Assembly: GCA_031459385.1 (NCBI GenBank)
Contig: JAVKIP010000018.1
Coordinates: forward strand, 1 to 45,579
Reading direction: 5' to 3'
Source: Candidatus Fervidifonticultor secundus
Lineage (GTDB): Bacteria; Sysuimicrobiota; Sysuimicrobiia; Sysuimicrobiales; Humicultoraceae
DNA length: 45,579 bases
Below are positions 9,266 to 39,037 of the stretch, in pieces; position 1 is the first letter of the stretch; the number at the start of each line of letters is the position of its first letter. The notes beneath the pieces were generated by a model. That model had not been told where the DNA came from, ran no database searches, and saw only the letters and a list, made by a program, of their open reading frames with translations. A program made the translations under genes and the position numbers.

Positions 9266-9291
9266 GTCTGGCCGGCGCGGACTCCGGGCAT
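9266..9291 (+). promoter_or_regulatory. Putative SigB/F-type promoter (copy 1) upstream of the HD-GYP gene
   Basis: GTCT(9266-9269)-N16-GGGCAT(9286-9291). The same motif recurs upstream of six other units. Confidence 0.65.
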
Positions 9292-9341
9292 AACCCCAGT
9301 ACGCCGGCCGCCCGGGGGTGTGCCGGCGCGCCGGCGTACCG

Positions 9342-10958
9342 ATGCGCGACCTGCTGCCCCGTGGCCGCTTCGAGTGGTGGGCTCTCTATCTTCGAGGGCT
9401 CACCGCATTCTTCGGGGTGTCGGTGCTGCTGGTCGGTACGCCCGCCCACCAGCCGGTGCCGCTGGCCGCTGTTCCGCTGGTGCTCCTCCTGGTGCCCGCA
9501 GGCTTTCTGAGCGTTGTCGAGGCCGCGCGTTGCGGCAGCTACCAGGCTGCGAGTTACGTGGGGACGTTCCTGGAGCTGCTGATCGTCACGTTCCTGGTGT
9601 ACGAAACCGGGGGCCCGGCGAGCTTCTTCTACTTCTTCTACGTGCCCGTGCTCATGTGGGGCACGGCCGGACGCGGCCTGCTCACCGGCGTTGTCGGAGG
9701 GTGGATGGCGGCCCTGGGGTTCGCCGTCGCAGCCAGCCTGCAGGAGACGCCGCCTCCCGACGCGCTGCCGCGGGCAGCGCTCCTGGCGTTGATCGGGCTG
9801 CTGATCGGTCTGCTCGAGCAGCGGCGCGCCGACGCCATGGCAGCGGCCCTGCGCGGCGCGGAGGAGCTGGCGCGGCGCACGCGTGTGGGCGCCGAGGTCC
9901 AGGCAGCCATCCAGGAGATCGCGGGCGCGTCGCTGGCGGACCGTGCCCGACGCCTCCTCGACCGGGTCGTACGCCTGTCCGGCGCCGAGGTCGGGCTCGT
10001 CGCGGTGGTCGACCTGGAAGGGCGTGCCGTGGTGGAAGCTGCGGTCGACGCGCAGGGGGGCTGGCGCCGCGGCGAGTCCCTGCCGCGCACCGCCGTGCTG
10101 GACGACGTGCTGCAGTCGGGCCTTCCCCATACCGCAGTGGACGTCTCGGCGGATGCCCGGTGGGCCAGCGTGTTCGGCCGCGGCCGGGCGGGATCGGCCG
10201 TGCTGTTCCCGCTGCGGGCCGGCGGGCAGACCTTCGGCGCCGCGTTCCTGGCACGCCGCGACGTGCGCCTGTTCAGCGAGCCCGAGGTGGAGGCTACCGA
10301 GGCGCTGCTCGCTGCGACCGCGCCAGCCCTGCGGGACGCCCAGATGCAGGTGCAGGCGCACGAGTTCATGATGAGCACGGTGAACGCGCTGGCGGCGGCG
10401 CTGGAGGCCAAGGATCCGTACACGCGGGGGCATTCCCAGCGCGTGGCGAGCAACGCCGTTGCCCTGGCGGAGGAGATCGGCCTGCCGCTCGACGAGGTCG
10501 AGCGCATCCGCTGGGCCAGCCTGCTGCACGACATCGGCAAGATCGGCACGCCCGAGCACATCCTGCGCAAACGCGGTCCGCTGACCGACGAGGAACGGGC
10601 CATTATGAACCTCCACGCTGAGCGCGGCGCACGCATTCTCAAAGAGTTCGCACCGTTCCGTGGGCTGGTGGACTACGTGCGCTACCACCAGGAGGCGTAC
10701 GACGGCAGCGGGTACCCGGAGGGGCTGGCGGGCGAGGCGATCCCCCTGGGCGCCCGGATCATCCGCATCGCCGATACCTTCGACGCCCTCATCTCTGACC
10801 GCCCCTACCGGCGCGGCCGTGCCATCGACGAGGCGACGGCGGAGCTGCGGGCAATGGCCGGGAGCGTTCTGGATCCATTCCTGGTCGACGTCTTCCTCCG
10901 CGTCCTCCAGGTGAAGCCGCCGTTCGAGGTGCAGCTGCGCCTCTGGCGCGAGGGCTAG
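9342..10958 (+). CDS. Membrane-anchored GAF + HD-GYP c-di-GMP phosphodiesterase
   Basis: Several N-terminal TM helices, GAF-like middle, then KDPYTRGHS, LLHDIGK, HQEAYDGSGYP and RPYR motifs intact. Confidence 0.9.
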   Translation: MRDLLPRGRFEWWALYLRGLTAFFGVSVLLVGTPAHQPVPLAAVPLVLLLVPAGFLSVVEAARCGSYQAASYVGTFLELLIVTFLVYETGGPASFFYFFYVPVLMWGTAGRGLLTGVVGGWMAALGFAVAASLQETPPPDALPRAALLALIGLLIGLLEQRRADAMAAALRGAEELARRTRVGAEVQAAIQEIAGASLADRARRLLDRVVRLSGAEVGLVAVVDLEGRAVVEAAVDAQGGWRRGESLPRTAVLDDVLQSGLPHTAVDVSADARWASVFGRGRAGSAVLFPLRAGGQTFGAAFLARRDVRLFSEPEVEATEALLAATAPALRDAQMQVQAHEFMMSTVNALAAALEAKDPYTRGHSQRVASNAVALAEEIGLPLDEVERIRWASLLHDIGKIGTPEHILRKRGPLTDEERAIMNLHAERGARILKEFAPFRGLVDYVRYHQEAYDGSGYPEGLAGEAIPLGARIIRIADTFDALISDRPYRRGRAIDEATAELRAMAGSVLDPFLVDVFLRVLQVKPPFEVQLRLWREG

Positions 10959-11938
10959 AGGGAGAGGTTTTCGGCCGATGCTGCCGCCACCGTGGCGTTC
11001 CGGCCGCTGCGGGCCAGCGCCAGGGCTTCCTCCAGGCGCTGCAGCAAGCCCTGGTCGTCCTCCGCATCCTGAGGGAACGCGGCCAGCCCGACGCTCACGG
11101 TCTGCGTCATCGGCAGCGGTTCCTCCGGCAGGGTGAACGGGTGCTGCTCCACCGCGCCCCGGATGCGCTCCGCGACGATGAGTCCGCCCTCCAGCGGGGT
11201 CTCCGGAAGAATCAGCCCGAAGCGGCCGGGGCCCAGCGCGGCCCGGATGTCTACCTGGCGCGTGATGCGGCTCAGCACGTCGGCGAGCTGGGCGGTCATC
11301 GCCCGCAGGCCCTCGTCGCCCCAGGCGTCGCGGATCTCCTCGTCCTGGTCCAGCGCCACCAGCGCGGCGGTGAAGCCGCGGGTGAACCGCCGGTAGCGCC
11401 GGACCTCCCGGCGCAGCATGATGTGGAAGTAGTTGGCGTTGAACAGCCCTGTGGCCGGGTCGATGATCACCTGCCGTCGGAGCCGCTCCCGCAGCTCCTC
11501 CAGCTGGCGCCTGGCGGCCACCGTCCGGCGGTCGCGTTGCCGCTCGTGGTGCCGGATGCCTTCCAGCACCGCGGTGACGCTGGCATGGTCGAGGCGGCGC
11601 AGGAACTCCTCGCCGGCGCTCGGGTGGTCGGGCGCCTCGGCCAGGAACCCGAGCAGCACGGGCTTGACCTCCAGCACGACGCGCACGACTTCGTGGAGCG
11701 GGACCCCGAAGGCGAAGGCCTCCTGGCTGAGACGGGCGGCGAACTCGGCGAACGGCTCGGGGCGATCGGCGACCAGAGCCTCGCAGACGGCGTTCATCCC
11801 GGTCAGGGTCCAGCGTCCGACGCGCTCGGCATCCTGCCACCACACGCTGAGCCCGGAGGTGCTGGCGATGAGATCCGCCCAGCGGGCCGCCAGCAAGCGA
11901 CGGTGCACGCGAACGCGCTCGAGCGCGGCAGCCTCCAT
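10955..11938 (-). CDS. Degenerate GGDEF-domain protein with an N-terminal helical (RsbRD_N-like) domain
   Basis: DPATGLFN, ILPET, AERIR and TVSVGLAAFP give the GGDEF fold, but the signature reads GPGRF. GGAGAGG RBS before the ATG at 11938. Confidence 0.85.
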   Translation of the reverse strand: MEAAALERVRVHRRLLAARWADLIASTSGLSVWWQDAERVGRWTLTGMNAVCEALVADRPEPFAEFAARLSQEAFAFGVPLHEVVRVVLEVKPVLLGFLAEAPDHPSAGEEFLRRLDHASVTAVLEGIRHHERQRDRRTVAARRQLEELRERLRRQVIIDPATGLFNANYFHIMLRREVRRYRRFTRGFTAALVALDQDEEIRDAWGDEGLRAMTAQLADVLSRITRQVDIRAALGPGRFGLILPETPLEGGLIVAERIRGAVEQHPFTLPEEPLPMTQTVSVGLAAFPQDAEDDQGLLQRLEEALALARSGRNATVAAASAENLSL

Positions 11939-12037
11939 ATGCGCCTCTCCCGGCTTACTACGCGCTGCGCTCGTACGACTCCTGTCCTGGGCAGGAAGCG
12001 TCCACGGCGCGGCGAACTCTGACGGCCGCCTGGAGCC

Positions 12038-12397
12038 ATGGGCACGAAGCTGCGCGGGATCCTGCAGGAGCTGGTCGGCGATGACACGCGGGCGGCCGCG
12101 GTCCTCGGCATAGATGGCGGCGTCATCGAGGCCGTCACCAAGGGCGGTGTCGCCGACCTCGCCCGCGTGAGCACCGATCTGGCGGCCCTGGTGAAGGTGG
12201 GGGCGTACTGCATCCGAAAGCTGGACGGCGGGGAACTGGACTACATCACGCTCACGACCGACAGCCTGTCGGTGCTGGTGGTGGCCATGGGCCAGCAGCA
12301 CTACCTCGCCACCGTCCTGGACGCCGGCGGCAACGTCGCGCGTGCGCGCCTGCAGATCCGGCGGCGCAAGGCGGAGATCACGGAGCAGCTCACGTGA
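12038..12397 (+). CDS. Roadblock/LC7 (MglB-like) protein
   Basis: 119 aa, LRGILQEL...[13 protein letters not shown]...[12 protein letters not shown] pattern. Confidence 0.8.
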
Positions 12398-13371
12398 GGC
12401 CGGCCCGCTGGCGATGCGTGCTCGGGGCCGGGCTGGTCCTCCTCGTGGGCCTCGTGCCGGTCGGGCCCGCGCCGGCCGCGGCCGGCACGCGACCCGCAGC
12501 CGGCGCGGCGGCGCCGACGTCGTCCGCCGCCGCGCTGCAGGAAGGCGCGCGCCTGCTCCACGAGGGCCGGCTGCAGGACGCCGAGGCTGCGGTGACGCGC
12601 GCGCTACGCGCGCGTCCGGCGGACCCGCGCGCCTGGCTGTGGCTCGGGGCGATCCGCTATCACCAAGGCGACGTCCAGTGGGCGGCGCAGGCGTTCGACT
12701 ACGTGTCGCGGCGGCAGCCGCACAACGCCCGGGCGCTCCTGTGGCTCGGCCACGCGCTGGTGCGGGCGGGCCGCGCCTCCGAGGCCCAGGAGGCGTTCCG
12801 CCGGGTGCTGCTGCTGCCTGCCGATCCACCGGCGCACGAGTTGGCCCGCCAGGCCCTGCGCGCGATGCGACCGCTGCCGCAGCAGGCAGCGCGGGGGCCC
12901 GAGGCCGCGGCCTGGGTCACCGACGTCACGGCCTACCAGGGGTTCGCGCGGCACTACAATCCCCGGCTGGGCCTCCAGGACGCCCGCCGCATCGGCGAGG
13001 CGCTGCTGGGTTACAGCCGGCTGTTCAACGTCGACCCGCGCCTGGTCGTCGCGCTCGTCGTGGTCGAGTCGGGGTTTCAAGTCCGCGTGCGGTCGCGTGC
13101 CGGGGCCATTGGCCTGGGGCAGCTGATGCCGGAGACCGCGCAGGCGCTCGGCGTCGATCCGGAAGACCCCGTGCAGAACCTCTACGGCACGATCCGGTAC
13201 CTGCGCGGGACCCTCGACCGGTTCGGGTGGGACAACCTGCACCTGGCCCTGGCGGCGTACAACGCGGGCCGTGGTGCCGTCGAGCGCCACCGGGGCATTC
13301 CCCCCTACGACGAGACGCGCTGGTACGTCGTGAACGTCACGACCCTCTACCGCCGGCTGCTGGCCCTGTGA
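12394..13371 (+). CDS. Exported TPR + SLT lytic transglycosylase
   Basis: Signal peptide, about three TPRs (AWLWLG, ALLWLG), SLT motifs [22 protein letters not shown] and ETRWYV. Confidence 0.9.
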
Positions 13372-13439
13372 GGCCGGCACCGGGCGAGGCGACCGCGCGC
13401 CACGAGCTTCACCGGCGTCCTCCGGGAAGGTCTGCGGAG

Positions 13440-13465
13440 GTCTAGGCGAAGCCGCGGCGGGGCAC
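13440..13465 (+). promoter_or_regulatory. Putative SigB/F-type promoter (copy 2) upstream of riboswitch 1
   Basis: GTCT(13440-13443)-N16-GGGCAC(13460-13465). Confidence 0.65.
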
Positions 13466-13517
13466 AGAAGAACTGGTGGACATCGCGTGCCGGCGATGTG
13501 CGGGCCGGTACGTGCAC

Positions 13518-13608
13518 CCTCCGAACGGGCTAACCCATCGCGAGGTGGGGGCGCAAAGCCGACGGGGGCGCGCGGGCTGCCGTGCGGCCGGCCGGGTTGC
13601 CGAAGAGG
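13518..13608 (+). ncRNA. c-di-GMP-I (GEMM-I) riboswitch aptamer 1
   Basis: CGAACGGGCTAA-CCCATC-GCGA-GGTGGG-GGCGCAAAGCC...GCCGGGTTGCCGAA matches the GEMM-I consensus (GNRA-capped P2, GCAAAG junction, 3' GGGYUGCCGA). It lies in a 5' leader. Confidence 0.88.
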
Positions 13609-13616
13609 AGCCAGGT

Positions 13617-13649
13617 GCGGGCCCTTCGGCCGGTGGCCGGAGGGCCCGC
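13617..13649 (+). promoter_or_regulatory. Strong hairpin, likely the expression platform of riboswitch 1
   Basis: 15-bp stem GCGGGCCCTTCGGCC/GGCCGGAGGGCCCGC with one G-U pair and no U-tract. The 5' arm CTTCGGC is complementary to aptamer 3' GCCGAAG (13599-13605). Confidence 0.55.
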
Positions 13650-13724
13650 GCGTTGCGAGCGCAGCGGCGCCACCGGTGCCGCGCGGTCTCCACAGGCGTT
13701 ACGCCCCGGGCAGGAAGGAAGGTC

Positions 13725-14489
13725 GTGAATCGTCGCACCGCCCTGGAGAGCGCGCGCGCCGGCCCGGCCCTCATCGCCGCCGTGCCCGCCGACGCCATCG
13801 ATCTCGATGCCCTCATCGCCCACCTGACCGCTCGCGGGTTCGAAGGCGGCATCTCGATCGCCGATCCGGAGACGGACGCCGTGCTGTGGATCCACGATGG
13901 CGCCCCGCAGGAGGCATGGTTCCTCGAGGCCACGGGGACTGAAGCCGTATTGCCCGCCGCCGCAGGGCGTGATCTGCTGCGGCAGGTAGCAGCGCGCGGC
14001 GGCATGCTCGCGGTGCTGACCGGCGTGCCGGCGATGCCCGCGTGGCCTGCGGGCGAAGGCGAACTGACGCCGGCGGATGCGACGGCGGCGGGCACGGCGC
14101 CAGCGACGCTGCCGCTGGAGCCCGCGGGCGCAGAGCCCACGGCCAGCGCGGGCGAGTTCGTGGCGAGCACGGCAGTGACCATGGAGCCGCCGGCGCACCC
14201 GTGGCCGCAGATCCTGAGCCTGTTTGTCCAGCGTCTCGCGCGGCTGCGGGGCCGCAAGCTCGCCAGCCGGTTTCTCGCGTCGCTCAATCGGGCGCTCGCG
14301 CCGCACGGCGGCCGCGTGGAGGACGGGCAGGTCGTGGCGCCCCCGCTCCCGGAGGCCACGTGGCGCCGGATCGTGGAGACCGCGTGCGCGTCCATCGTGG
14401 CGGTCGTGGGGCGGGGCTTCGTCGACGGCAACATCGCGGCAGCGGAGCAGGAACTGCGCCAGGCGAGCCGCGCAGGGGAGGGCCGGTGA
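13725..14489 (+). CDS. Hypothetical protein with a PATAN/DUF4388-like N-terminal domain
   Basis: AGGAAGG RBS and GTG start. IDLDALIAHLTARGFEGGISI...AVLWIHDG pattern, Ala/Pro linker, helical C-terminus. Confidence 0.6.
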   Translation: MNRRTALESARAGPALIAAVPADAIDLDALIAHLTARGFEGGISIADPETDAVLWIHDGAPQEAWFLEATGTEAVLPAAAGRDLLRQVAARGGMLAVLTGVPAMPAWPAGEGELTPADATAAGTAPATLPLEPAGAEPTASAGEFVASTAVTMEPPAHPWPQILSLFVQRLARLRGRKLASRFLASLNRALAPHGGRVEDGQVVAPPLPEATWRRIVETACASIVAVVGRGFVDGNIAAAEQELRQASRAGEGR

Positions 14490-15298
14490 CCGCCCGCTCG
14501 GGCATCACCCACTACGCCTGGCCCGGGGGGCTGGCGGTGGTGCTGGAGACCCCGACCGCAGGCATCGGTGCGGTCTTCGGGGCGGCGGGCTGGCAGCTGG
14601 CGCCGCACGACGCGGTGACCGCGGGGCTCCCGTCCGGCGCCGCACGCGCGCATCTCCCCCTGCCCGAGGATGTCGTCGCCCAGTGCATGGACCTGGAGTT
14701 CGTGGGCGGCGCGCTGCACACCGACTTCGTGCTGCTCGACCGCCTCCTCCGGCGCCTGCAGGCCGACGGCACTAGCGCCGTGCTCTTCGTGCTCGGGACG
14801 CATCCCGCGGCCTTCGTGGTCAGCGAGGGGACGCTGACGGCCTTTGATCCCACCGCGCCGGAAGCATCGGAGGAGGCTGTGATCACTCGCGCAGCAGGAT
14901 GGATCGTGCAGCTGGCGGGGCGGATGCGCGCGCCGGCCACGCCGCCGGAACCGGCGATGCCGGTCGCCGCGCCCGCGCCGGCGGGGGCGACGGCGGTCGC
15001 CTCGCCCGACGACGAGCGCTTCGGCCGGTTTGCGGCGAGCGCCCGGTTCCTGTGCGCGCCCGGCGCCGATGCCGCGCTCGCGCCGGAACTGCGCGCTGCG
15101 ATTCAGACCGCGACCGGCGTCGACCCCGGGGCGGTGGTGCGCTACCTCGACGGTGGGCACACGCTCGCCGAGGTCGCCGCCGCCAGCGGCCTCCGGGGCC
15201 CGCAGGTCGCGGCTGTGCTCGAGGTGCTCGTGGCGCGCCGGCTCGCGTTCCGGTACGTCAGCCGGTCCCGCCCGCAGACCGGCTCGCGGCTGCGGTAA
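14486..15298 (+). CDS. Hypothetical protein with a PATAN/DUF4388-like domain and a C-terminal winged helix
   Basis: GTGA overlap. LHTDFVLLDRLLRRLQADG...FVVSEG, and C-terminal LDGGHTLAEVAAASGL...VLEVLVARRLA. Confidence 0.6.
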   Translation: MTARSGITHYAWPGGLAVVLETPTAGIGAVFGAAGWQLAPHDAVTAGLPSGAARAHLPLPEDVVAQCMDLEFVGGALHTDFVLLDRLLRRLQADGTSAVLFVLGTHPAAFVVSEGTLTAFDPTAPEASEEAVITRAAGWIVQLAGRMRAPATPPEPAMPVAAPAPAGATAVASPDDERFGRFAASARFLCAPGADAALAPELRAAIQTATGVDPGAVVRYLDGGHTLAEVAAASGLRGPQVAAVLEVLVARRLAFRYVSRSRPQTGSRLR

Positions 15299-15325
15299 CG
15301 GACACGGCGGTGGCCGCGCGCCGAT

Positions 15326-15351
15326 GTCTACCCGAGGGGAGTTCTGGGCAA
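15326..15351 (+). promoter_or_regulatory. Putative SigB/F-type promoter (copy 3) upstream of riboswitch 2 and the sigma gene (autoregulatory)
   Basis: GTCT(15326-15329)-N16-GGGCAA(15346-15351). Confidence 0.65.
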
Positions 15352-15434
15352 AGTTCTTTGCGGAGAGTCTGCACCAATGTTCTGGGCGGTCTGTTCTGGC
15401 GCGCGCTGACCGCCGGCGACAACTGCATACCGCT

Positions 15435-15513
15435 CCCCGAACAGGGCAAACCCATCGCGAGGTGGGGGCGCAAAGCTGCGGGACCTGCGTGGTCGGCCGG
15501 GCTGCCGAAGGGA
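15435..15513 (+). ncRNA. c-di-GMP-I (GEMM-I) riboswitch aptamer 2
   Basis: CGAACAGGGCAAA-CCCATC-GCGA-GGTGGG-GGCGCAAAGCT...GCCGGGCTGCCGAA. ACAGGGCAAACC is the same as in the Vc2 aptamer. Confidence 0.92.
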
Positions 15514-15521
15514 TGCACCGT

Positions 15522-15561
15522 GGATCCTCGTGGGCAGTCCCAGGAGGGTCCGTTGTTTTTT
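15522..15561 (+). terminator. Intrinsic terminator, the expression platform of riboswitch 2
   Basis: GGATCCTC-GTGGG-CAGT-CCCA-G-GAGGGTCC followed by GTTGTTTTTT, between the aptamer and the sigma RBS. Confidence 0.8.
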
Positions 15562-15611
15562 CGGGGACGGGCGCGTCGCATGCGGACGAAAGGTCACGGG
15601 GAGGCCGCACG

Positions 15612-16442
15612 ATGCCTGGGCGCAGTGGAGAGAGTGCCGTACCGGAGGTTGGAGCACACCGCATGGGCCGCGGGGCGGGCGGCGGGGAGGCCCGTGAGGA
15701 CGAGGAAGCGCTCATGCGACAGTACGCGGAGACCCGCGACCCGACAATCCGGGAGCGGGTGGTGGTGGCCTGCACGCCGCTGGTCCGGCGCATCGCCTCG
15801 GAGTTCGTCTTCTCTGGGGTCCCGACCGAAGACCTGGTGCAGGTCGGGTACATCGGGCTCCTGAACGCCATCGCCGCGTTCGACCCCACCCGCGGGGCCA
15901 AGTTCACCACGTACGCCAGCTACCTGGTCCGCGGCGAGATCCGCCACTACCTGCGCGATCAGCGCGACACGATCCGCAAGCCCCGGTGGCTGCAGAAGAT
16001 CAACACGCGCATCGAGGACGCTATCGGGCGGTACATCAGCGAGGAGGGACGGTTTCCCGGCCTCGAGGAGCTAGCGACCGAGCTGAACATCGAGGAGGAA
16101 GGCCTGCTCGAAGTCCTCCGGACGCGGGAAGCCCTGCGGACCATCGCGCTCGAGACCGATGAAGAGGGCAGCGACCTGCGCGTCGACCGGGAGCGCATCC
16201 GCCACCGCTCGCACGTCAGCTTCCAGCTGCCCATCGAGGACCGTGTGCTGCTGCTGGAGGCCATGGAGTCGCTGAACAGTCTGCAGAAAAAGGTGCTCTA
16301 TTACCTGTTCTTCACCGATCTGACCCAGACCGAGGCCGCCAGGCGCATCGGTATCTCGCAAAAGCACGTCTCGCGCGTCCTGGCCTCGGCCCTGGCCAAA
16401 CTGCGAGGCGTGATGGGCGTGGTGTCATCGGAAGTGATCTAG
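15612..16442 (+). CDS. RNA polymerase sigma factor, SigB/SigF/SigG family
   Basis: EDLVQVGYIGLLNAIAAFDPTRG.KFTTYA...GEIRHYLRD...IR.PR, region 4 TQTEAARRIGISQKHVSR, GGGGAGG RBS. Confidence 0.93.
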   Translation: MPGRSGESAVPEVGAHRMGRGAGGGEAREDEEALMRQYAETRDPTIRERVVVACTPLVRRIASEFVFSGVPTEDLVQVGYIGLLNAIAAFDPTRGAKFTTYASYLVRGEIRHYLRDQRDTIRKPRWLQKINTRIEDAIGRYISEEGRFPGLEELATELNIEEEGLLEVLRTREALRTIALETDEEGSDLRVDRERIRHRSHVSFQLPIEDRVLLLEAMESLNSLQKKVLYYLFFTDLTQTEAARRIGISQKHVSRVLASALAKLRGVMGVVSSEVI

Positions 16443-16512: not shown

Positions 16513-16869
16513 ATGTCGCAGCTCAAGGATGTGCTGGCGGATCTGGCCAAGGTGGACGGTGTCCTGGCGGCACTGGTCGTCAGCCGTGACGGGTTCGTCG
16601 TGGAGGGCGTGACCAGTGAGGAGGCCGTGGACCTCGAGGCCGTGGGCGCCATCGTGGCCAGCAACATCGCCGCCGCCGACTCCATGGGCCGGGAGATGGT
16701 CCGCGGCACCATCCGCAACCTGCTGTTGGAGTTCGACGAGGGCCCCGTCGCCATCGGCCCGGCCGGTCCCGATGCGATGCTGGTGGTCGTGGGGAACAAA
16801 CAGGCGAACCTGGGACGCATCCGCCTCGAGATGCGGCGCAACAGTCAGCTGGCGGCCGCGCTGGTATAG
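16513..16869 (+). CDS. Roadblock/LC7 (MglB-like) protein
   Basis: LKDVLADLAKVDGVLAALVVSRDGFVVE...LEFDEG...ANLGRIRLEM, GGAGG RBS. Confidence 0.9.
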   Translation: MSQLKDVLADLAKVDGVLAALVVSRDGFVVEGVTSEEAVDLEAVGAIVASNIAAADSMGREMVRGTIRNLLLEFDEGPVAIGPAGPDAMLVVVGNKQANLGRIRLEMRRNSQLAAALV

Positions 16870-16887: not shown

Positions 16888-19104
<2,217 letters not shown>

Positions 19105-19115: not shown

Positions 19116-19142
19116 ATGCCCAAGTCCAGCGGGCGCGAAGAC
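19116..19142 (-). promoter_or_regulatory. Putative SigB/F-type promoter (copy 4) for the TPR-PilB gene
   Basis: Minus strand GTCT(19142-19139)-N17-GGGCAT(19121-19116), ending only 11 nt before the ATG. Confidence 0.55.
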
Positions 19143-19157: not shown

Positions 19158-19183
19158 GACTAGCGCTGTGGTTTTGTGGGCAT
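19158..19183 (+). promoter_or_regulatory. Putative SigB/F-type promoter (copy 5) for the dnaB-like-merR-pilB-pilT-pilC operon
   Basis: GACT(19158-19161)-N16-GGGCAT(19178-19183), back-to-back with copy 4. Confidence 0.65.
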
Positions 19184-21261: not shown

Positions 21262-21486
21262 AGGTGCAGCTCGATCGCGAGCAGGTGGTGGTGTTCACGC
21301 CGTTTCACCGCATCGAGGGAGACCTGCACCTGCCGTCGACGGCGCGGCTGTCCGACCGGCTGAACGCGGCCAAGGACTTCCTGCCCATCACGTCGGCGCG
21401 GCTCTTCTCGCTGGACGGTCGGCTGCTGTACGAGACCGAGGTCGTGCTGGTCAACAAGGCCCACGTCGTCATGATGATGGAGCGCC

Positions 21487-28005: not shown

Positions 28006-28026
28006 GGTGCCGGGTGGTTGCGAGCG

Positions 28027-32350: not shown

Positions 32351-32351
32351 C

Positions 32352-33275
32352 ATGCGGGGCTGGATCCAGCAGGGGCGTGTGCGAGACATCCGACAGCGTG
32401 CCGCGCGTTGGTTACGAGCCCTGGGCAAGCGTCTGGGGCCGACCGCGGTCTACTTGGGAGATGGCGCGGTGCTTACCAGATTGGTCTCTGGCGAGGTGAT
32501 GTTGCTCGATGGTCGCGATCGGTCGGTGGCCCCCGTGCTCATCATGGACGGGGTGTGGGAGCCAGACGTCACGCAGGTCGTATTACGATGCGTACGGCCA
32601 GGTATGCGCGTCCTCGATGTTGGCGCGAACTTCGGGTATTTTACGCTCTTGCTGTGCCGGCGAGTAGGGACCGAAGGGAGAGTCTACGCGTTCGAGCCCC
32701 AGGCGCGTGTGCACGCGTTTCTCGAATACAACATCGAATGCAACGCCTACGGGACCGTTGCGCGAGCCTACCGCTTGGCACTTGGGGCAAGTGCGGGAAC
32801 TCAACTGCTCAGGCGGGTCGAGAGCGGCTTGGGGGTACGGGCGGGCAGTGCGTCGGTCAGAGAGGAAGTGGCACGGGAATTGCTGCCGGCCGTGAGCGAG
32901 GCAGTCCTCGCGCAGGAGACCGCGGAGGTGACCCGCCTGGACGACCTTGGCCTTGGCGAGATCGATTTCGCGAAGATCGATGCCGAGGGGGCCGAGTACG
33001 ACGTTTGGAGAGGCGGTCGCAGTACCCTGTCGCAGGCGGCGTGCCTCATCATGGAGTACGGACCGCGGTCGCTCGCGGCAGGCCCCGCCCTTCTGGAGGA
33101 ACTCCGCGACGCGGGGTTTCGCCTGGCGATTATCGAACGTGGGGGCAGGCTCACCGCGGCGTTGCCCCCTGAGATTCACTCCGTGGCGGAGGATCGCGGG
33201 TTCGTGCACGTCTTCGCAGGAAAGCCGCGGTACCTGGCTGATTTGGGTCTCCGTGTTGAGAAAGCCAAGTTGTAG
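32352..33275 (+). CDS. FkbM family methyltransferase
   Basis: VLDVGANFGYF, YAFEP and KIDAEGAE motifs. Confidence 0.92.
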   Translation: MRGWIQQGRVRDIRQRAARWLRALGKRLGPTAVYLGDGAVLTRLVSGEVMLLDGRDRSVAPVLIMDGVWEPDVTQVVLRCVRPGMRVLDVGANFGYFTLLLCRRVGTEGRVYAFEPQARVHAFLEYNIECNAYGTVARAYRLALGASAGTQLLRRVESGLGVRAGSASVREEVARELLPAVSEAVLAQETAEVTRLDDLGLGEIDFAKIDAEGAEYDVWRGGRSTLSQAACLIMEYGPRSLAAGPALLEELRDAGFRLAIIERGGRLTAALPPEIHSVAEDRGFVHVFAGKPRYLADLGLRVEKAKL

Positions 33276-33364
33276 ATGATTGAAACGCCGGCGCTGACGT
33301 GCGTTCCCGGACCGTACCCCTGAGGGTCTGACGGAGCGCTGTGTTTGACATTACCGGTGCATGC

Positions 33365-34165
33365 ATGGACACGCAGGAAGGTGCCATGGAATGGCGTGCG
33401 CGTCGCATTCAGCTTGGTGGCATCGCCATCGATGCTGTCGGCGTGTCGGACGCGGTGGCGGCCGTGGCTAGCGCGCTCCAGGCGCGCGTGCGAGGGTACG
33501 TCGTGACGCCGAACGTTGATCATGTGGTGCGCGCGCGGCGCATGCCGCACTTGCGAATTGTGTACGAGGACGCCTGGTTGAGTCTGGCAGACGGGATGCC
33601 GCTCGTGTGGGCTTCTCGTCTGCTGCGTCGACCGTTGCCGGAACGCACCACGGGGGCCGATCTGCTACCCGCATTGTGTGCCATGGCTGCAGCGCAGCGG
33701 TATTCCGTCTTTTTCCTCGGCAGCAGTGGACACACGGCTCAACGTGCGGCGTCCAATCTCGTCGCACGGTTTCCCGGCCTTCGTGTGGCGGGCGTGTATG
33801 GTTCGCCAGCGCGGTTTTCGCCGGACGGCCCAGCGGCTGAGGCCGCCGTTGCGGCTGTCGCGGAGGCCGGACCGGATCTGCTTTTCGTAGGACTCGGTTC
33901 TCCCAAGCAGGAACTGTTCGTTCATCGGCATCGGGCGCGCCTTGCCTGCACCGTTGCGATCTGCTGCGGCGCGGCGGTCGACTACGCTGCGGGTGTCAGG
34001 CCCCGCGCCCCCCGCTGGCTGCAGCGCGCGGGTCTGGAATGGCTCTGGCGCCTCGCCCACGAACCGCGCCGCCTGTGGCGCCGCTACCTTGTCGATGATA
34101 TGGCGTTTCTCGGCATAGTCCTCAGAGAGTGGTGGCAAGAGCAGAGGGGCAACTCGAGGCCGTAA
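33365..34165 (+). CDS. WecG/TagA/CpsF family glycosyltransferase
   Basis: VTPNVDH, ADGMP, GLGSPKQE, RAP.W...GLEWLWRL..EPRRLWRRY. Start 33365 or 33386. Confidence 0.92.
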   Translation: MDTQEGAMEWRARRIQLGGIAIDAVGVSDAVAAVASALQARVRGYVVTPNVDHVVRARRMPHLRIVYEDAWLSLADGMPLVWASRLLRRPLPERTTGADLLPALCAMAAAQRYSVFFLGSSGHTAQRAASNLVARFPGLRVAGVYGSPARFSPDGPAAEAAVAAVAEAGPDLLFVGLGSPKQELFVHRHRARLACTVAICCGAAVDYAAGVRPRAPRWLQRAGLEWLWRLAHEPRRLWRRYLVDDMAFLGIVLREWWQEQRGNSRP

Positions 34166-34196
34166 CGGCGCGCATGCCGGCCAACACGCGTGGCCC

Positions 34197-34940
34197 GTGC
34201 TTAGCGTAGCGGCTGGCGTGGTGTGGGTTGTCCTTCCCGCGTACAACGAGGCCGCCTCGCTGCCTCCGTTGCTGGAGGGACTGGCGGCGCTACCCCGGAG
34301 CCTCGTCTGGCGCGCAGTGCTGGTGGACGACGGCAGCCATGATGGCACCGGCGACGTGGCCCGGGCGGGCGCAACGCGCCTGCCGATAGACGTGGTGGTG
34401 CACGAGCAAAACCGAGGCCTGGCAGCGGCACTGCGCACAGGCCTGGAGTACGCATGTGCGCGCGCGGCGCCCGACGATGTGATAGTGACCATGGATGCCG
34501 ACAACACCCATGACCCTGCGCAGATTCCCCAGATGCTGCAGGCGATCGCCGGCGGGACCGACCTAGTCGTGGCGTCGCGCTACGTGCGGGGGGCGCGGCA
34601 GGTGGGCGTGCCCATCCACCGTGTGCTGCTCAGCGCGGGCGTGGGCTGGCTGCTACGGGTACGGTTCGGGCTTCCGGGCGTGCGCGACTACTCCTGCTGG
34701 TACCGCGCGTACCGCGCGAGTCTATTGCAGCGGGCACTGGGCCGCTACGGAGCGCGGCTGATCGAAGCCAGTGGGTTTGATGTCATGGCCGAAGTGCTGA
34801 TCAAGTTAGCACCGCTGCGCCCGCGGGTGGCGGAGGTGCCGCTGCTGCTGCGCTACGACCGCAAGCCAGGACCGAGCAAGATGCCCACGATGCGGACGGT
34901 CCTGGGGTACCTCCGGTTGCTGTGGTCGCGACGGCGGTGA
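34197..34940 (+). CDS. Glycosyltransferase family 2 (DPM synthase-like)
   Basis: LPAYNE, VDDGS.DGT, MDAD.TH and ASRY motifs. Confidence 0.9.
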   Translation: MLSVAAGVVWVVLPAYNEAASLPPLLEGLAALPRSLVWRAVLVDDGSHDGTGDVARAGATRLPIDVVVHEQNRGLAAALRTGLEYACARAAPDDVIVTMDADNTHDPAQIPQMLQAIAGGTDLVVASRYVRGARQVGVPIHRVLLSAGVGWLLRVRFGLPGVRDYSCWYRAYRASLLQRALGRYGARLIEASGFDVMAEVLIKLAPLRPRVAEVPLLLRYDRKPGPSKMPTMRTVLGYLRLLWSRRR

Positions 34941-34985
34941 CGCCCGCAACGAGTATTCGGTCACGGGGCCCGACGCGCTCGCCTT

Positions 34986-35130
34986 GAATGGCTCTGGCGC
35001 CTCGCCGCTCTGGCGCCTCGCCTGTGAGCCCCGGCGCCTGTGGCGGCGCCACCTGGTCGATGATGTGGCGTTTGTGGGCATAGTCCTAAGAGAGTGGTGG
35101 CGACAACGGACCGTCAGGTCGAGGCCGTAG
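34986..35130 (+). pseudogene. Remnant 3' end of a second WecG/TagA-family gene
   Basis: Aligns to 34037-34165 and encodes LWRLACEPRRLWRRHLVDDVAFVGIVLREWWRQRTVRSRP*. Frameshifted by a 16-bp tandem duplication (34991-35022), 5' part missing. Confidence 0.85.
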
Positions 35131-36554
35131 CGGAAGTTTCGCTTCCCTGGGTCATCGTGCGCCACCTGCCTCGACTGGGGACGGCCGGGCTGGCGCGTCT
35201 GAGCCTGGCGGCCGGCGACCTGCTGGCCCTGGGCCTGGCCCTGGCCGTGGCCGTGGGGCTGCGTGTCTCGGTGCTGCCGGCGCTCTCGGCGGCGTTTTCC
35301 CGCCCGACCTACCCGCTGTCTCACTACTTCGGCCTCTGGTGGCTCCCGGTGGTCTACCTGGTGGCCCTGTGGCACGCCGGGCTCTACACCCGCCGCGATC
35401 CGTTCTGGGAGGAAACGCGGCGATGTGCATCCGGCGTTACCGCGGCCGCCGTGCTCATCTTCGCGGTGCTGGCCCTGGCCAAGGTGGGGGACGACGTGTC
35501 GCGGCCGGTGGTGGTGGTGGCCTGGGCCGTCCTGCTCGGCCTCTTGCCGCTGGCCCGGTGGGCCAGCAAACGGCTGCTGGTACGGCTCGGGCCGTGGCGG
35601 CAGCGGGTCCTTCTGGTGGGCGGCGGAGCGCAGACCGCGCGGCTGGCGGAGGCGTTGGGGCGGGCGCCGACGCTGGGGTACGAGGTCGTGGGCGTCACAG
35701 ACGACCCCGCTGTGGCTCCCGAACGCGCGCTCGCCGCGCGTGCCAGCGACGTGATCATCGCTGCCCCGCAGATGGACCGTGCAGCGTTCCTGGCGCTGGT
35801 GGAGCGCCTGCGGCCGGTGGCCGAGAACGTGCTGATCGCCCCCGACCTGAGCGAGATGCCAGTGCTGGGGGTCGAGGTGGTCGGGCTGTTCGAGGATCGG
35901 GCGCTGCTGCTCCGGGTACCCAACAACCTGCTGCGGCCCTGGAACCTGGCCGTCAAGCGCGCGTTCGACCTGACGGCCGGCGCGCTGCTGGGGCTGGCGG
36001 TCCTGCCGGTGCTGCTGGCGGCGGCGGTGGCCGTGCGCGCGACATCGCCAGGCCCGGTGTTGCATGTGGAGCCGCGGGTGGGGCGGGGCCGGCGCCTGTT
36101 CCCCTGCTTCAAGCTGCGGACGATGTACACGGACGCCGACGAGCGGCTGGCCGCGCACCTCCGGGCCCATCCGGGCGCCGCCGAGGAGTGGGAACGTTAC
36201 TGGAAGCTGCGCGGCCACGACCCGCGGGTGACGCCGGTGGGCCGGTGGCTGCGGCGCTACGGCCTCGACGAGCTGCCGCAGCTGCTGCACGTGCTCCGCG
36301 GCGAGATGAGCCTGGTCGGCCCGCGCCCCTACCTGCCCCGGGAGCTGCCCCTGCTGGCCGGCGACGGCATGCTGGACGTGCGGCCCGGCCTTACGGGCCT
36401 GTGGCAGGTGAGCGGGAAGAACGCCCTCGACTACCAGCAGCGGGTTTCCCTCGACCGGTGGTACGTGAACAACTGGTCGCTGTGGCTGGACGTGATCATT
36501 TTGGCGAAAACGGTGCCGGCGCTGGTGCGGGGGGACCGCCTGCCGGGAGACTGA
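35094..36554 (+). CDS. wbaP: Undecaprenyl-phosphate sugar phosphotransferase (WbaP family)
   Basis: TM domain, KRAFD, FKLRTM, DPRVT.VG, LDELPQL, MSLVGPRP, PGLTGLWQVSG. True start may be later (for example 35157). Confidence 0.9.
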   Translation: MVATTDRQVEAVAEVSLPWVIVRHLPRLGTAGLARLSLAAGDLLALGLALAVAVGLRVSVLPALSAAFSRPTYPLSHYFGLWWLPVVYLVALWHAGLYTRRDPFWEETRRCASGVTAAAVLIFAVLALAKVGDDVSRPVVVVAWAVLLGLLPLARWASKRLLVRLGPWRQRVLLVGGGAQTARLAEALGRAPTLGYEVVGVTDDPAVAPERALAARASDVIIAAPQMDRAAFLALVERLRPVAENVLIAPDLSEMPVLGVEVVGLFEDRALLLRVPNNLLRPWNLAVKRAFDLTAGALLGLAVLPVLLAAAVAVRATSPGPVLHVEPRVGRGRRLFPCFKLRTMYTDADERLAAHLRAHPGAAEEWERYWKLRGHDPRVTPVGRWLRRYGLDELPQLLHVLRGEMSLVGPRPYLPRELPLLAGDGMLDVRPGLTGLWQVSGKNALDYQQRVSLDRWYVNNWSLWLDVIILAKTVPALVRGDRLPGD

Positions 36555-36704
36555 CGCCTTGTGGTATCGTGCGCGCGCGGATCGTCGTGCAGTGGTATGT
36601 GCTGGGGGAAGTCGAAACGACGCCGACGGCACCGCGACGCGGCGTGCCCGCCCGGTTGCGGGTGACCGGCCCCGGGCGCCGAGGCTGGCGCCGACCCGCG
36701 CGGC

Positions 36705-37799
36705 TTACGCCAGCCCCTTGATCTTCAGTTTCAGGTCGTTGGGCGAGTCCGCCGCCCGCAGCGCGTCGTCGTAGCCGATGAGCCCGTCCTTGTGCAGGCG
36801 GTAGAGCGCCTGGTCGAACGTCTGCATCCCTTCCTGCGTGCCCATCTGGATCGCCTGCTTGATGGAGCCGATCTCGCCCTTTTTGACGAGATCGCGGATG
36901 CGGGGCGTAGCCAGCATGACCTCGATGGCCACGACCCGGCCGCGGGTATCGGCCCGGGGCACCAGGCGCTGGGAGACGATGGCCTCGAGGGTGAGCGAGA
37001 GGCGGTGCAACACCTCCTGGGTGTGGTCGGTGGGGAAGAAGGCCAGCATCCGCTCGATGGCCTGGGGCGCGTTCACCGAGTGCAGGGTGCTCAGCACGAG
37101 GTGGCCGGTCTCGGCGAAGTAGAGGGCCGCCTCGGCAGACTCCTGGTCGCGCATCTCGCCGATCAACAGCACGTCAGGGGTCTGCCGCAGTGCCGCCCGC
37201 AGGGCCTGCGGGAAGCTGGGAGTGTCGGTACCCACCTCGCGCTGGCTCACGATGCTCTGCTTGTCGGCATGGAGGAACTCGATGGGATCCTCGACGGTGA
37301 CGATGTGCCCGTCCTTGTGCTCGTTGCGGTAGTCGACCATCGCTGCCAGGGTGGTCGACTTCCCGGTGCCGGCGTGCCCGGTGACGAGCACGAGCCCCCG
37401 GGTGCGCAGGCTGAGGTCTTTCAGCACCTCGGGCAGACGGAGTTCCGCGAACGATGGGATCGTGAGGCGCACGCGGCGGGCCACGAAGGCGACCGAGCCG
37501 CGCTGCCGGTAGACGTTGATCCGGAACCGGCCGATGCCCGGGAGGCTGTAGGCCAGGTCGACGGCGTGCTCGGCACGGAACTGGGCGCGCTGGACCTCGT
37601 CGAGCATCTCGAAGGCCAGCCGCTCGGTGTCATCGCGGCTGAGGGCGGGTAGGCCGTTGGAACTCACCTGGCCGTTGATCCGGTACATGGGCGGCGTGCC
37701 CGCCTTCACGTACAGGTCGGTGGCGTCCAGGGTTTCCATGGGCTGCAGGAGGTCGACGACGCGCAATGCAGGTTGCCTTTCTTCAGCGACCAGGCTCAT
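36705..37799 (-). CDS. PilT/PilU-family ATPase (PilU-like)
   Basis: RFRIN, GHAGTGKS, EDPIE, LRQTPDV, STLH. RIRDLVKK replaces AIRNLIRE. Directly downstream of a pilT. Confidence 0.9.
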   Translation of the reverse strand: MSLVAEERQPALRVVDLLQPMETLDATDLYVKAGTPPMYRINGQVSSNGLPALSRDDTERLAFEMLDEVQRAQFRAEHAVDLAYSLPGIGRFRINVYRQRGSVAFVARRVRLTIPSFAELRLPEVLKDLSLRTRGLVLVTGHAGTGKSTTLAAMVDYRNEHKDGHIVTVEDPIEFLHADKQSIVSQREVGTDTPSFPQALRAALRQTPDVLLIGEMRDQESAEAALYFAETGHLVLSTLHSVNAPQAIERMLAFFPTDHTQEVLHRLSLTLEAIVSQRLVPRADTRGRVVAIEVMLATPRIRDLVKKGEIGSIKQAIQMGTQEGMQTFDQALYRLHKDGLIGYDDALRAADSPNDLKLKIKGLA

Positions 37800-37804
37800 C
37801 GCCC

Positions 37805-38884
37805 TCACCCCCTGGGCCCCGCCGCTGCGGGTGCCAGGCCCTCGGCAAACGCGGTCTTGTCTGCGGCCCAGCGCTGTGCCGTCTCGAGCGTGATCTTCCT
37901 GGCCTTCAACAGGTTGCGCAGCGACTGGTCGAGGCTCTGCATGCCGTCCTTGCTGCCGGTCTGGATGGCCGAAGGAATCTGATGGACCTTGTTCTCGCGA
38001 ATCATGTTCCGGACGGCGGGGGTGGCGACCAGCACCTCGACGGCGGCCACGCGGCCCTTTCCGTCGGCCGTGGGCAGCAGGGTCTGCGCCACCACGGCCA
38101 GCAGGCTCTCGGCCAGCTGGACACGGATCTGCTCCTGCTGCGTACTCGGGAAGACGTCGATGACCCGGTTGATCGTCTTGCTGGCGCTGGAGGTGTGCAG
38201 CGTGGCCATGACCAGGTGGCCGGTCTCGGCGGCGGTCAGGGCCATGGAGATCGTCTCCAGATCGCGCAGCTCGCCGACCAGGATGACGTCGGGGTCCTCA
38301 CGCAGCGCGGCGCGGAGGGCCTGGGCGAACGACTTGGCGTTCATACCCACCTCGCGCTGGTTGACCACCGACTGCCGGTGCTGATGGACGAACTCGATGG
38401 GGTCCTCGATGGTGATGACGTGACACGTGCGCCGGTCGTTGATGAGGTCGACCATGGACGCGAGCGTGGTGGACTTGCCCGATCCGGTGGGGCCCGTGAC
38501 CAGGATGAGCCCCCGGTCCTTCAGGGCCAGCTCGCCCAGGACGGGCGGCAGGCCCAGCTCCTCCAGGGACTTGATCTTCGAGGGGATCACCCGAAAGACG
38601 ATCCCCTCCCCCAACCGGTGGCGGAAGGCGTTCACCCGAAACCGCCCGAGGTGCTGCAGCTCGACCGAGAAGTCGAGGTCCCAGTGCTCTTCCAGGCGGC
38701 TCTTCTGGTTGTCGGTGAGCACCTCGTAGACCATTTCGTGGAGGTCTTCCTTGGTCAGGGGCGGCACGTCCGGGACGGTCACCAGCTCGCCGTTCAGGCG
38801 CATCTTGGGAGGGATGCCCACCGTCAGGTGGAGGTCGGAGGCCCCCGCCTGCTTGGTGAGGATCAGGAGATCGGTGATGTCCAT
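37805..38884 (-). CDS. pilT: Type IV pilus retraction ATPase PilT (second copy)
   Basis: ASDLHL, GPTGSGKS, LREDPD and AVRNMIRE motifs. GGAGG RBS before the ATG at 38884. Confidence 0.93.
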   Translation of the reverse strand: MDITDLLILTKQAGASDLHLTVGIPPKMRLNGELVTVPDVPPLTKEDLHEMVYEVLTDNQKSRLEEHWDLDFSVELQHLGRFRVNAFRHRLGEGIVFRVIPSKIKSLEELGLPPVLGELALKDRGLILVTGPTGSGKSTTLASMVDLINDRRTCHVITIEDPIEFVHQHRQSVVNQREVGMNAKSFAQALRAALREDPDVILVGELRDLETISMALTAAETGHLVMATLHTSSASKTINRVIDVFPSTQQEQIRVQLAESLLAVVAQTLLPTADGKGRVAAVEVLVATPAVRNMIRENKVHQIPSAIQTGSKDGMQSLDQSLRNLLKARKITLETAQRWAADKTAFAEGLAPAAAGPRG

Positions 38885-39011
38885 GCGGTGCCCTCCATGT
38901 GTGTCCGATTCCCGCCACGCCCGCGGCACCATGGCCGCCAATCGAGCGCGGCCGGGGCGCGGGACAGTTGTCGCGAGGAACCGGTCGAACGGACTCGTGC
39001 ACGCAGGGGTT

Positions 39012-39037
39012 ATGCCCAACCCTCCGGGGGCTCAGTC
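39012..39037 (-). promoter_or_regulatory. Putative SigB/F-type promoter (copy 7) for pilT2-pilU
   Basis: Minus strand GACT(39037-39034)-N16-GGGCAT(39017-39012). GGGCATAACCCC is identical to copy 1. Confidence 0.65.

Follow-up and report, generated by a model that had tools for sequence, protein, structure and literature searches.

The 45,579-nucleotide stretch of Candidatus Fervidifonticultor secundus, an uncultured bacterium of hot springs, analysed here (the window) holds a type IV pilus locus and, within it, the gene of a SigB/F-type sigma factor (15612-16442). We found a bipartite element, G(T/A)CT-N16-GGG(C/T)A, at oriented intergenic positions before pilus and cyclic di-GMP (c-di-GMP) genes in the window and elsewhere in the genome, ahead of most c-di-GMP riboswitches of that genome, and upstream of the sigma gene itself, whose leader carries a c-di-GMP-I-GGC riboswitch aptamer followed by a terminator-like hairpin. 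We consider it likely that these observations have a joint explanation, in which a SigB/F-type promoter class, read most likely by this riboswitch-gated sigma factor, would drive a pilus regulon. Motif enrichment, orientation, spacing, target functions and conservation were computed here, as were riboswitch identity and the alternative pairings in the sigma leader.

The window is positions 1-45579 of contig C10 of a 3.30-Mb assembly in 59 contigs (genome G000; 97.6% complete, 72% G+C) and represents 1.4% of the genome. Gene calling used a codon-based log-likelihood model, with the genome itself as training set, and yielded 3095 genes and a coding share of 91.7%, and window proteins were annotated with Pfam. 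A site is called oriented when it points at a gene and lies within 400 nucleotides (nt) of its start; the non-coding share of the genome is 8.25%.

A genome-wide class of oriented sites

A reading of the window from its letters alone (the sequence-only reading) had described a seven-copy motif in the pilus locus. All seven sites exist, six with a spacing of exactly 16 nt and the seventh (19142, minus strand) with 17, and our gene calls and Pfam annotation likewise place all six N16 sites between genes and in the right orientation. As had also been noted, GGGCATAACCCC is common to the sites at 9266 and 39037. In the following list, the first base of the spacer is written out as the fifth base of the upstream box.

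9266-9290, plus strand: promoter-like site GTCTG-N15-GGGCA(TAACCCC), 28 nt before the GAF-HD-GYP gene 9318-10958
13440-13464, plus strand: promoter-like GTCTA-N15-GGGCA ahead of the 13725-15298 operon, whose c-di-GMP-I aptamer follows at 53 nt
15326-15350, plus strand: promoter-like GTCTA-N15-GGGCA ahead of the sigma gene, a candidate promoter (P1) for autoregulation
19117-19142, minus strand: N17 variant GTCTT-N16-GGGCA(TA), 13 nt before the called start of the TPR-MshEN-PilB gene (16888-19104, minus strand)
19158-19182, plus strand: promoter-like GACTA-N15-GGGCA(TAT), ahead of the operon DnaB_C-like/MerR/DUF6812/pilB/pilT/pilC (19367-25648)
25750-25774, plus strand: promoter-like GTCTA-N15-GGGTA, followed at 113 nt by the gene of the major pilin (25887-26297)
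39013-39037, minus strand: promoter-like GACTG-N15-GGGCA(TAACCCC), ahead of pilT2-pilU on the same strand (36705-38884)

With W for A or T and Y for C or T, GWCT-N16-GGGYA had seven exact matches in the 45.6-kb window, compared with 1.19 ± 1.01 expected from 100 dinucleotide shuffles, none of which reached seven (maximum 5). One of the exact matches, at 773-797 on the plus strand, was not part of the sequence-only reading; it lies inside a minus-strand thiolase gene and is taken as a chance match. A lack of enrichment at oriented intergenic positions had been named beforehand as a refutation, and a scan of the whole genome with altered spacers as controls did find enrichment:

GWCT-N16-GGGYA: 96 matches, 29 intergenic, 26 oriented
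GWCT and GGGYA with N14, N15, N17 or N18: 37-56 matches, 5-10 intergenic, 2-5 oriented
Purine after GTCT, N16: 50 matches, 24 intergenic, 23 oriented
Purine after GTCT, nine other spacings: 14-49 matches, 1-7 intergenic, 0-4 oriented

The purine was a feature absent from the query: when the 26 oriented sites were aligned, the base after GTCT was G in 12, A in 11, T in three and C in none, while matches in coding regions mostly had T or C there. A scan of all sixteen dinucleotides after GGG at N16 returned GGGCA 18 times, GGGTA six times and GGGAA four times; GGGTC was marginal (3 vs 0-1), and the other dinucleotides were not clearly above the background of other spacings. The refined motif, GTCT(A/G)-N15-GGG(C/T)A, thus has 23 oriented intergenic sites in the genome, six of them inside the window, and what had been labelled a seven-copy motif is better described as a promoter class that numbers about two dozen sites across the genome, a quarter of which the window holds. 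GTTT-N16-GGG[CTA]A had no match in the oriented upstream regions of this genome, and GTCT(A/G) or GACT(A/G) appears to be a lineage-specific variant of the -35 box.

Promoter signature and riboswitch distances

Written as hexamers, the element becomes GTCTRN-N14-GGGYAN, and its 14-nt spacing is that of the Bacillus subtilis promoter Pctc. SigB promoters have been described as GTTTAA-N12-14-GGG(A/T)A(A/T), with Pctc as GTTTAA-N14-GGGTAT and with G1-3 and A5 of the -10 box invariant among SigB homologues, in the parts of the source that we drew on (Sevcikova et al. 2021, PMC8346170). The same G1-3 and A5 in our sites were fixed by the search pattern, and the real test of the class is the spacer control (23 vs 0-4 sites) together with the scan of -10 variants.

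Eight c-di-GMP-I-type riboswitches were found in the genome. Six of their aptamers begin 16, 16, 30, 53, 63 and 84 nt downstream of the last base of GGGYA; the remaining two comprise one behind a SigA-like TTGCCA-N17-TAGCAT and one without a recognisable promoter. The element is asymmetric, and 23 of the 24 intergenic copies of the refined motif face a gene. Because a riboswitch must sit in the 5' leader, and because 16 nt fits only a start site, we interpret the motif as a promoter and not as an operator. The Pctc geometry, the bases G1-3 and A5 of the -10 box and the riboswitch distances support the SigB/F-type promoters that the sequence-only reading had proposed, and we infer that the sites are transcription starts of one promoter class.

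Target genes across the genome

Further sites had been predicted at pilMNO, pilD and com genes. The genome scan found a pilMNO-GGDEF operon preceded by an N15 variant, GTCTATCCGGCCCCTAGTTGGGCAT, and a secretin operon with a site just after pilD. Outside the window, the sites stand as follows:

Pilus or c-di-GMP link, contig C1: before the gene of a PilZ protein
Pilus or c-di-GMP link, contig C5: before a PAS histidine kinase gene, and another before the next gene, REC-GGDEF
Pilus or c-di-GMP link, contig C9: before a prepilin gene
Pilus or c-di-GMP link, C10:57661, just after pilD: before an unknown gene, an AMIN-secretin (PilQ) gene and a TPR protein gene
Pilus or c-di-GMP link, contig C23: before a GspH/prepilin minor-pilin module and before a module of four unknown open reading frames (ORFs)
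Pilus or c-di-GMP link, contig C7: before the gene of a CarboxypepD_reg protein behind a riboswitch
Pilus or c-di-GMP link, contig C59: before a 54-aa ORF followed by an HD-GYP unit
Cell wall and protease: before AMIN-amidase, LysM-NlpC/P60 and S41 protease genes
No evident pilus link: before topA-xerC, DUF951-ychF, a bicupin gene, a hydrolase gene and the gene of a Diphthami_syn_2 protein

Enrichment was tested by transcription unit, a deliberately conservative choice that misses internal promoters such as those of the HD-GYP and PilZ genes. Pilus or c-di-GMP units made up 7 of the 18 units with the motif, compared with 22 of 966 others (Fisher p = 2.3e-7), and outside the window 4 of 13 compared with 19 of 955 (Fisher p = 1.5e-4). 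Target annotation and the enrichment outside the window support the reading of the class as a putative pilus and c-di-GMP regulon.

Conservation in relatives

The relatives used for comparison were 21 genomes of the same family with a sigma orthologue at 68-88% identity, 19 loci of which were compared for gene order; their genus has been placed in the candidate phylum CSP1-3 in the portion of the source consulted (PMC11604079). The unpublished genomes G019 and G010 enter three counts (sigma-gene motif, sigma aptamer and alternative helix). As far as the contigs reach, all 19 loci keep one order: a 119-aa protein, TPR-SLT, the riboswitch operon, sigma and Roadblock genes, then TPR-PilB on the opposite strand, DnaB-like, MerR, DUF6812, pilB, pilT, pilC and pilin. 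At orthologous promoters, the exact motif is kept while the spacer sequence diverges:

Before the DnaB-like operon: 11 of 11 loci
Before the HD-GYP orthologue: 4 of 4 loci reaching the gene
After TPR-SLT (operon of riboswitch 1): 10 of 14 loci, one as GGGAA
Before the TPR-PilB orthologue, N16 form: 4 of 11 loci
Before pilin genes: genomes G002, G011 and G007

In a seven-genus alignment of the intergenic region between the divergent pilB and DnaB-like genes, GACTA...TTCTGGG(C/T)ATA is the most conserved block. Every one of the seven window sites has a counterpart in G002, a genome of the same genus, where the spacing of the TPR-PilB site is again N17, its spacer sequence being another one, and the pilT2 site reads GACTG-N16-GGGCA, one base longer, about 120 nt before the gene. 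G002 also has two tandem copies before the HD-GYP gene (locus L069, 19480 and 19541), 61 nt apart, where the window genome has one. Several relatives (L079, L081, L082, L080, L084, L086 and L076) have a further motif site just 3' of the Roadblock gene, at the head of an insert of about 3.6 kb between Roadblock and TPR-PilB that is missing in the window genome.

The sigma factor

We place the start of the sigma gene at ATG 15612 (276 aa; the codon-based call was 15663) because GGGGAGG 8 nt upstream and the ATG itself are both conserved in G002. Pfam, run on a 259-aa reading, found regions 2, 3 (weak) and 4 and no region 1.1. The protein is of the SigB/SigF/SigG type of group 3, and TIGR02980 was the best of 62 NCBIfam models at 177.2 bits, below its cut-off of 234.35; the FliA/WhiG model TIGR02479 scored 101.6 bits, and NF005644 'SigF', which we take to be the cyanobacterial SigF model, scored 161 bits against a cut-off of 261. 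We therefore call it SigB/F-type, and not a member of a named equivalog. The genome has 13 genes of the sigma-70 family, three of them SigBFG-type, the window sigma's paralogues being C8:66449-67201 (50% identity) and one on contig C58 (46% identity). Its RpoD is of the PRK09210 type, and a secretin is encoded in the same genome. A further sigma gene, C11:57675-58313 (L011), scored 368 bits against the sporulation-SigH cut-off of 208, which is odd beside a secretin in a CSP1-3 lineage. The 72% G+C hinted at an actinobacterial origin, which we rejected in view of this SigH-like gene, the RpoD type and the secretin.

The sequence-only reading had taken the sigma factor for a dedicated pilus sigma that transcribes its own gene. 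The dedication is supported by synteny, by the motif before its own gene and by genome G005, although paralogues may recognise the same promoters. Among the SigBFG-type sigma factors, only that of the window is syntenic with pilus genes throughout the family, a synteny seen in further families of the order too. In the 97%-complete genome G005, the sigma orthologue and RpoD are the only full-length TIGR02980 matches, and this genome keeps the motif before the HD-GYP gene, the DnaB-like operon and a minor-pilin homologue. The motif was found upstream of C58-type sigma genes in none of eight loci. In 10 of 21 relatives (9 of 19 without G019 and G010), the sigma gene is preceded by the exact N16 motif with a diverged spacer, in keeping with self-transcription in the window genome and these relatives and not with a universal feature of the family. 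On these grounds, the window sigma is probably the main reader of the motif.

A SigB-type partner switch, consisting of an anti-sigma kinase and a STAS protein, seems to be missing. PF01740 (STAS) had no match in this 97.6%-complete genome, in a search of which PF13466 (STAS_2) was not part, and no RsbW-like gene lies next to the sigma gene, whose neighbours are PatA_N-like (a lead only) and Roadblock genes. Matches to PF13581 were mostly frames of at least 376 aa, three of them in annotated kinases; one 186-aa frame was found on contig C5.

A riboswitch in the sigma leader

Downstream of P1, the following features lead up to and include the sigma gene:

15369-15397, plus strand: degenerate SigA-like promoter CTGCAC-N17-TGTTCT, candidate basal promoter P2, read by eye
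15436-15510, plus strand: c-di-GMP-I-GGC riboswitch aptamer (RF03167), 65.1 bits against a gathering score of 59
15522-15561, plus strand: terminator-like hairpin (15522-15551) with U-tract TTGTTTTTT (15553-15561), found by folding
15612-16442, plus strand: SigB/SigF/SigG-type group 3 sigma gene

The aptamer begins 84 nt after the motif promoter and lies about 100 nt before the start codon. Both riboswitches of the window are on the strand of their gene and in its leader, and both belong to Rfam clan CL00126 (RF01051, RF03167). The sigma aptamer is present in 20 of 20 orthologous loci scanned (19 of 19 without G019) and in five of six loci from other families of the order, where the sigma factor shows about 48-51% identity and its gene has kept TPR-SLT, MerR and Roadblock genes as neighbours. 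It was found at none of 11 paralogue loci and at none of 20 loci of homologues at most 54% identical from other lineages. In relatives, a SigA-like TTGCAC/TTGCGC-N17-TAnnAT between motif and aptamer aligns with P2 of the window.

A hairpin of -20 to -38 kcal/mol follows the aptamer in 20 of 20 orthologues (single-sequence folds), and a run of at least four T stands directly after it in 13 of 21, as judged by eye. An automatic U-tail rule scored 0 of 20, the U-tract being paired in the minimum-energy fold. A consensus terminator scan of 13300-15800 found nothing, the hairpin having internal mismatches, and it was folding that revealed it. When the region behind the aptamer was aligned with MAFFT, the alignment was poor, and RNAalifold gave six pairs only. 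When the RNA was folded up to the 5' arm and loop of the hairpin, the 3' segment of the aptamer (GGGCUGCC, or GCUGCCGA in distant genera) paired with that arm and loop (GGCAGUCC/GGCAGCCC, or UCGGUGGC) as an anti-terminator would. An uninterrupted alternative helix of at least 8 bp occurs in 18 of 21 sequences (17 of 20 without G019) and in 8.8% of 840 shuffles, a comparison that overstates independence since the sequences are kin; the two registers represent at least two solutions. Pairings of the A strand with the Shine-Dalgarno sequence and with the 3' arm of the terminator were considered and dropped, the helix between aptamer 3' segment and terminator 5' arm being the conserved one.

The order of aptamer 3' segment, terminator 5' arm and terminator 3' arm is the classical OFF layout, in which ligand would lower sigma expression. 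From the aptamer class, c-di-GMP is the probable ligand.

Weighing the alternatives

An origin of the matches in base composition alone, by accident in a genome of 72% G+C, has next to no probability left. One of the seven exact window matches (773) is intragenic, and of the 50 genome-wide matches to the refined pattern, 26 lie outside intergenic DNA and 27 fall short of being oriented intergenic sites; however, an accident is contradicted by the shuffles and the spacer controls as well as by functional enrichment, riboswitch association and conservation with diverged spacers, and these controls already refute it. It is also very improbable that the element is the operator of a DNA-binding regulator, for example of the MerR-family protein encoded at 20938-21261, with transcription starting elsewhere. 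The MerR-family gene is conserved within the pilus operon, and MerR proteins work at promoters with unusual spacing, but the element is asymmetric and strictly oriented, its -10 half has G1-3 and A5 as SigB-type promoters do, the sites when aligned show no dyad symmetry, and two aptamers begin so closely behind it that no space is left for a separate promoter.

A more serious alternative, although still an unlikely one, accepts the SigB/F-type promoter class and has it read mainly by a paralogue (C8:66449-67201 or that on C58), or by several sigma factors interchangeably, with the window sigma as one contributor. Region 4.2 is nearly identical among the three SigBFG-type paralogues, and nine SigB homologues of Streptomyces coelicolor are described as cross-recognising promoters (PMC8346170), which makes the same plausible here. 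The C8 paralogue has a promoter of its own, GTCTAG-N14-GGGAAC, kept in G000, G001 and G002 at 18-39 nt before the start (L008 and L032; orthologues L207 and L208 in G001 and G002). GGGAA and GGGCA may be one class because the fourth -10 base varies between C, T and A at a single orthologous promoter, that of the riboswitch operon (GGGAA in G017). In distant genera, a 58-63% identical paralogue (L197-L202; G014, G013, G012, G004, G020 and G006) bears the exact motif in five of six loci, 39-96 nt upstream and without a riboswitch. In most of these genera, no motif stands before the riboswitch-gated sigma gene, and this paralogue could be the reader of the motif there. Against a paralogue as main reader, G005 keeps the motif at pilus genes with the window-type sigma alone, the window-type sigma is the only one syntenic with pilus genes in family and order and the only one gated by a riboswitch, and the C58 type has no motif promoter in its eight loci. 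We observed three other GGGAA sites, before REC-HD-GYP, TPR-HTH protein and mraZ genes, and the C8 sigma and the GGGAA sites could form a sigma cascade or a sister regulon.

Besides the evidence for a paralogue, several results weigh against a pilus regulon under the riboswitch-gated window sigma. About one third of the sites in the genome precede genes without an evident pilus link, the spacer controls allow 0-4 chance sites, and the gene calls, being codon-based, are crude. In G005 the pattern is not enriched overall, with 29 matches compared with 27 for the reversed control and seven oriented intergenic ones. P2 is a poor SigA match, and a consensus scan found no sigma-70-like site at that position in the window. 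The OFF direction, finally, rests on thermodynamic folding and comparative pairing.

Neighbouring genes of the locus

Two further features flank the sigma gene, riboswitch 1, which leads an operon of two ORFs, and a Roadblock gene:

13518-13604, plus strand: c-di-GMP-I riboswitch aptamer (RF01051), 41.2 bits against a gathering score of 35
16513-16869, plus strand: Roadblock/LC7 gene, weakly MglB-like, directly 3' of the sigma gene in 19 of 19 family loci at 76-98% identity

The two ORFs behind riboswitch 1 (13725-15298) had no Pfam or NCBIfam match, and their nearest ESM Atlas clusters are PatA_N/DUF4388 with scores of 0.87-0.91, which are leads only. Upstream, the conserved 119-aa protein (12038-12397) is Roadblock-like by eye and has no family match. 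The Roadblock gene is also found near the sigma gene in other families of the order, and across distant genera its conservation at least equals that of sigma; a sigma partner and polarity control are among the possibilities for its role.

Positions 19367-21500 encode an ATPase of 524 aa that resembles DnaB_C/AAA_25 but scores far below the cut-offs for DnaB, the MerR-family regulator and a DUF6812 protein. In every family locus reaching that far, the pilB-pilT-pilC operon begins with these three conserved genes. Two PilB-type ATPases, 16888-19104 (minus strand) and 21487-23196 (plus strand), both contain MshEN, and one has an N-terminal TPR region. MshEN is a c-di-GMP-binding module, and c-di-GMP may act on the pilus motor besides transcription. 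After the pilin, positions 26300-36600 hold glycosyltransferase, PMT-like, flippase-like and FkbM-methyltransferase genes at a G+C content of 0.64-0.66, compared with 0.72-0.75 elsewhere, which suggests a pilin glycosylation island, possibly acquired.

Discussion

In the circuit that we propose, the motif class would drive the pilus machinery (pilB/T/C, TPR-PilB, pilT2/U, the secretin operon, and pilMNO via its N15 variant), the major pilin and minor pilins, genes for the turnover and reception of c-di-GMP (HD-GYP, GGDEF, PilZ), and six of the eight operons led by c-di-GMP riboswitches. The motif promoter of the sigma gene would add positive feedback in this genus and its nearest relatives. 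P1 and the weak SigA-like P2 would both feed a leader with the c-di-GMP-I-GGC aptamer and, behind it, the terminator. With ligand bound, the aptamer would be locked, the terminator would form and no sigma would be made; at low ligand, read-through of the leader would let sigma accumulate and turn the pilus regulon on.

Taken to its full extent, this would describe a type IV pilus master sigma switched by c-di-GMP, or by the true ligand of the GGC variant, via a riboswitch in its own leader. Such a sigma would amplify itself and transcribe the pilus apparatus, the enzymes that make and break c-di-GMP and five more riboswitch operons, so that one molecule would be read twice in series, in a feed-forward loop with feedback on the signal, and a pairing of riboswitch and sigma, order-wide in an uncultured hot-spring phylum, would replace the anti-sigma partner switch usual for SigB-type factors. 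We advance this fuller version tentatively, with slightly more doubt than belief.

The result is a wiring diagram, open to test, of how pili may be controlled in a candidate phylum without a cultured member or published regulatory data; the words pili, pilus, sigma and c-di-GMP do not occur in the main text, as available to us, of the paper that placed the genus (PMC11604079). If the diagram is correct, an alternative sigma factor would be governed by a riboswitch on its own gene in place of an anti-sigma factor, and one cascade would sense a second messenger at two levels in succession. The signature of the promoters could also serve as an annotation tool for pilus-related unknowns, among them the PatA_N-like pair 13725-15298, the four unknown ORFs from C23:138376 and the CarboxypepD_reg protein on C7. 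Among the titles and abstracts listed in literature searches for a riboswitch-gated pilus sigma factor, nothing was closer than the systems compared below, which is no proof of absence from print.

Comparison with known systems

SigF of Synechocystis sp. PCC 6803 is described as a group 3 sigma of the SigB clade for pilus formation and motility (Asayama and Imamura 2008, PMC2532724). According to the parts of that paper on which we rely, it autoregulates and is the sole sigma reading the pilA1 promoter, with TAGGC at -32 and GGTAA at -12 (PMC2532724). The likeness lies in transcription of the pilin and of the sigma's own gene and in the G-rich -12 region (GGG at -15 to -13, then GGTAA). As in the SigF-pilA1 circuit, the motif class here precedes both the major pilin (25750) and the sigma gene (15326), and both sites are conserved in G002. 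In contrast, the upstream element of SigF is TAGGC at -32 in an AG-rich stretch, whereas here it is GTCT at N16; no riboswitch on sigF is reported in the part of the source that we used (PMC2532724); and the SigF regulon presented there comprises a few genes, compared with about two dozen promoters here that would cover the whole machinery and c-di-GMP enzymes.

The SigB systems of B. subtilis and S. coelicolor, as far as described in the source cited above, share the promoter geometry, G1-3 and A5 of the -10 box and the presence of several paralogues per genome. They differ in a -35 box of GTTT instead of GTCT(A/G) and in regulons for stress or differentiation instead of pili and c-di-GMP. 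Control here is apparently exerted by the leader riboswitch, with no STAS antagonist found with PF01740 and no adjacent RsbW-like gene.

FliA (sigma-28) offers the parallel of one alternative sigma for a motility organelle, encoded among its targets. The FliA promoter is TAAA-N15-GCCGATAA, which differs from the motif here. FliA belongs to another sigma subfamily (for the window sigma, TIGR02479 gave 102 bits and TIGR02980 177 bits), and no counterpart of the anti-sigma FlgM checkpoint was seen here.

A regulatory parallel in riboswitch terms comes from Clostridioides difficile, where, in the sections of the source used here, the riboswitch Cd1 (class I, OFF) precedes the flgB operon, of which sigD is a part, and controls this sigma gene together with its regulon, and Cdi-2-4 (class II, ON) precedes pilA1 (PMC6366702). 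On that account, both systems would have a class I c-di-GMP riboswitch that sets the level of an organelle-specific sigma via transcription termination, and in both, pilus genes are also under direct riboswitch control, at least by prediction. While sigD lies deep in a large flagellar operon and concerns flagella and toxins, the riboswitch here is on the sigma's own leader and would govern a pilus regulon; and while C. difficile pili rise with c-di-GMP, the layout here predicts that sigma and pilus transcription fall with the ligand. What appears new here is a c-di-GMP-I-GGC riboswitch with an OFF-type terminator/anti-terminator in the leader of a sigma gene. It is noteworthy that, across the order, a sigma gene of the pilus cluster is paired with a c-di-GMP riboswitch, together with a promoter class that, unlike anything described for C. 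difficile in the source, would also drive five further riboswitch-led operons and thereby feed most of the other c-di-GMP riboswitches of the genome.

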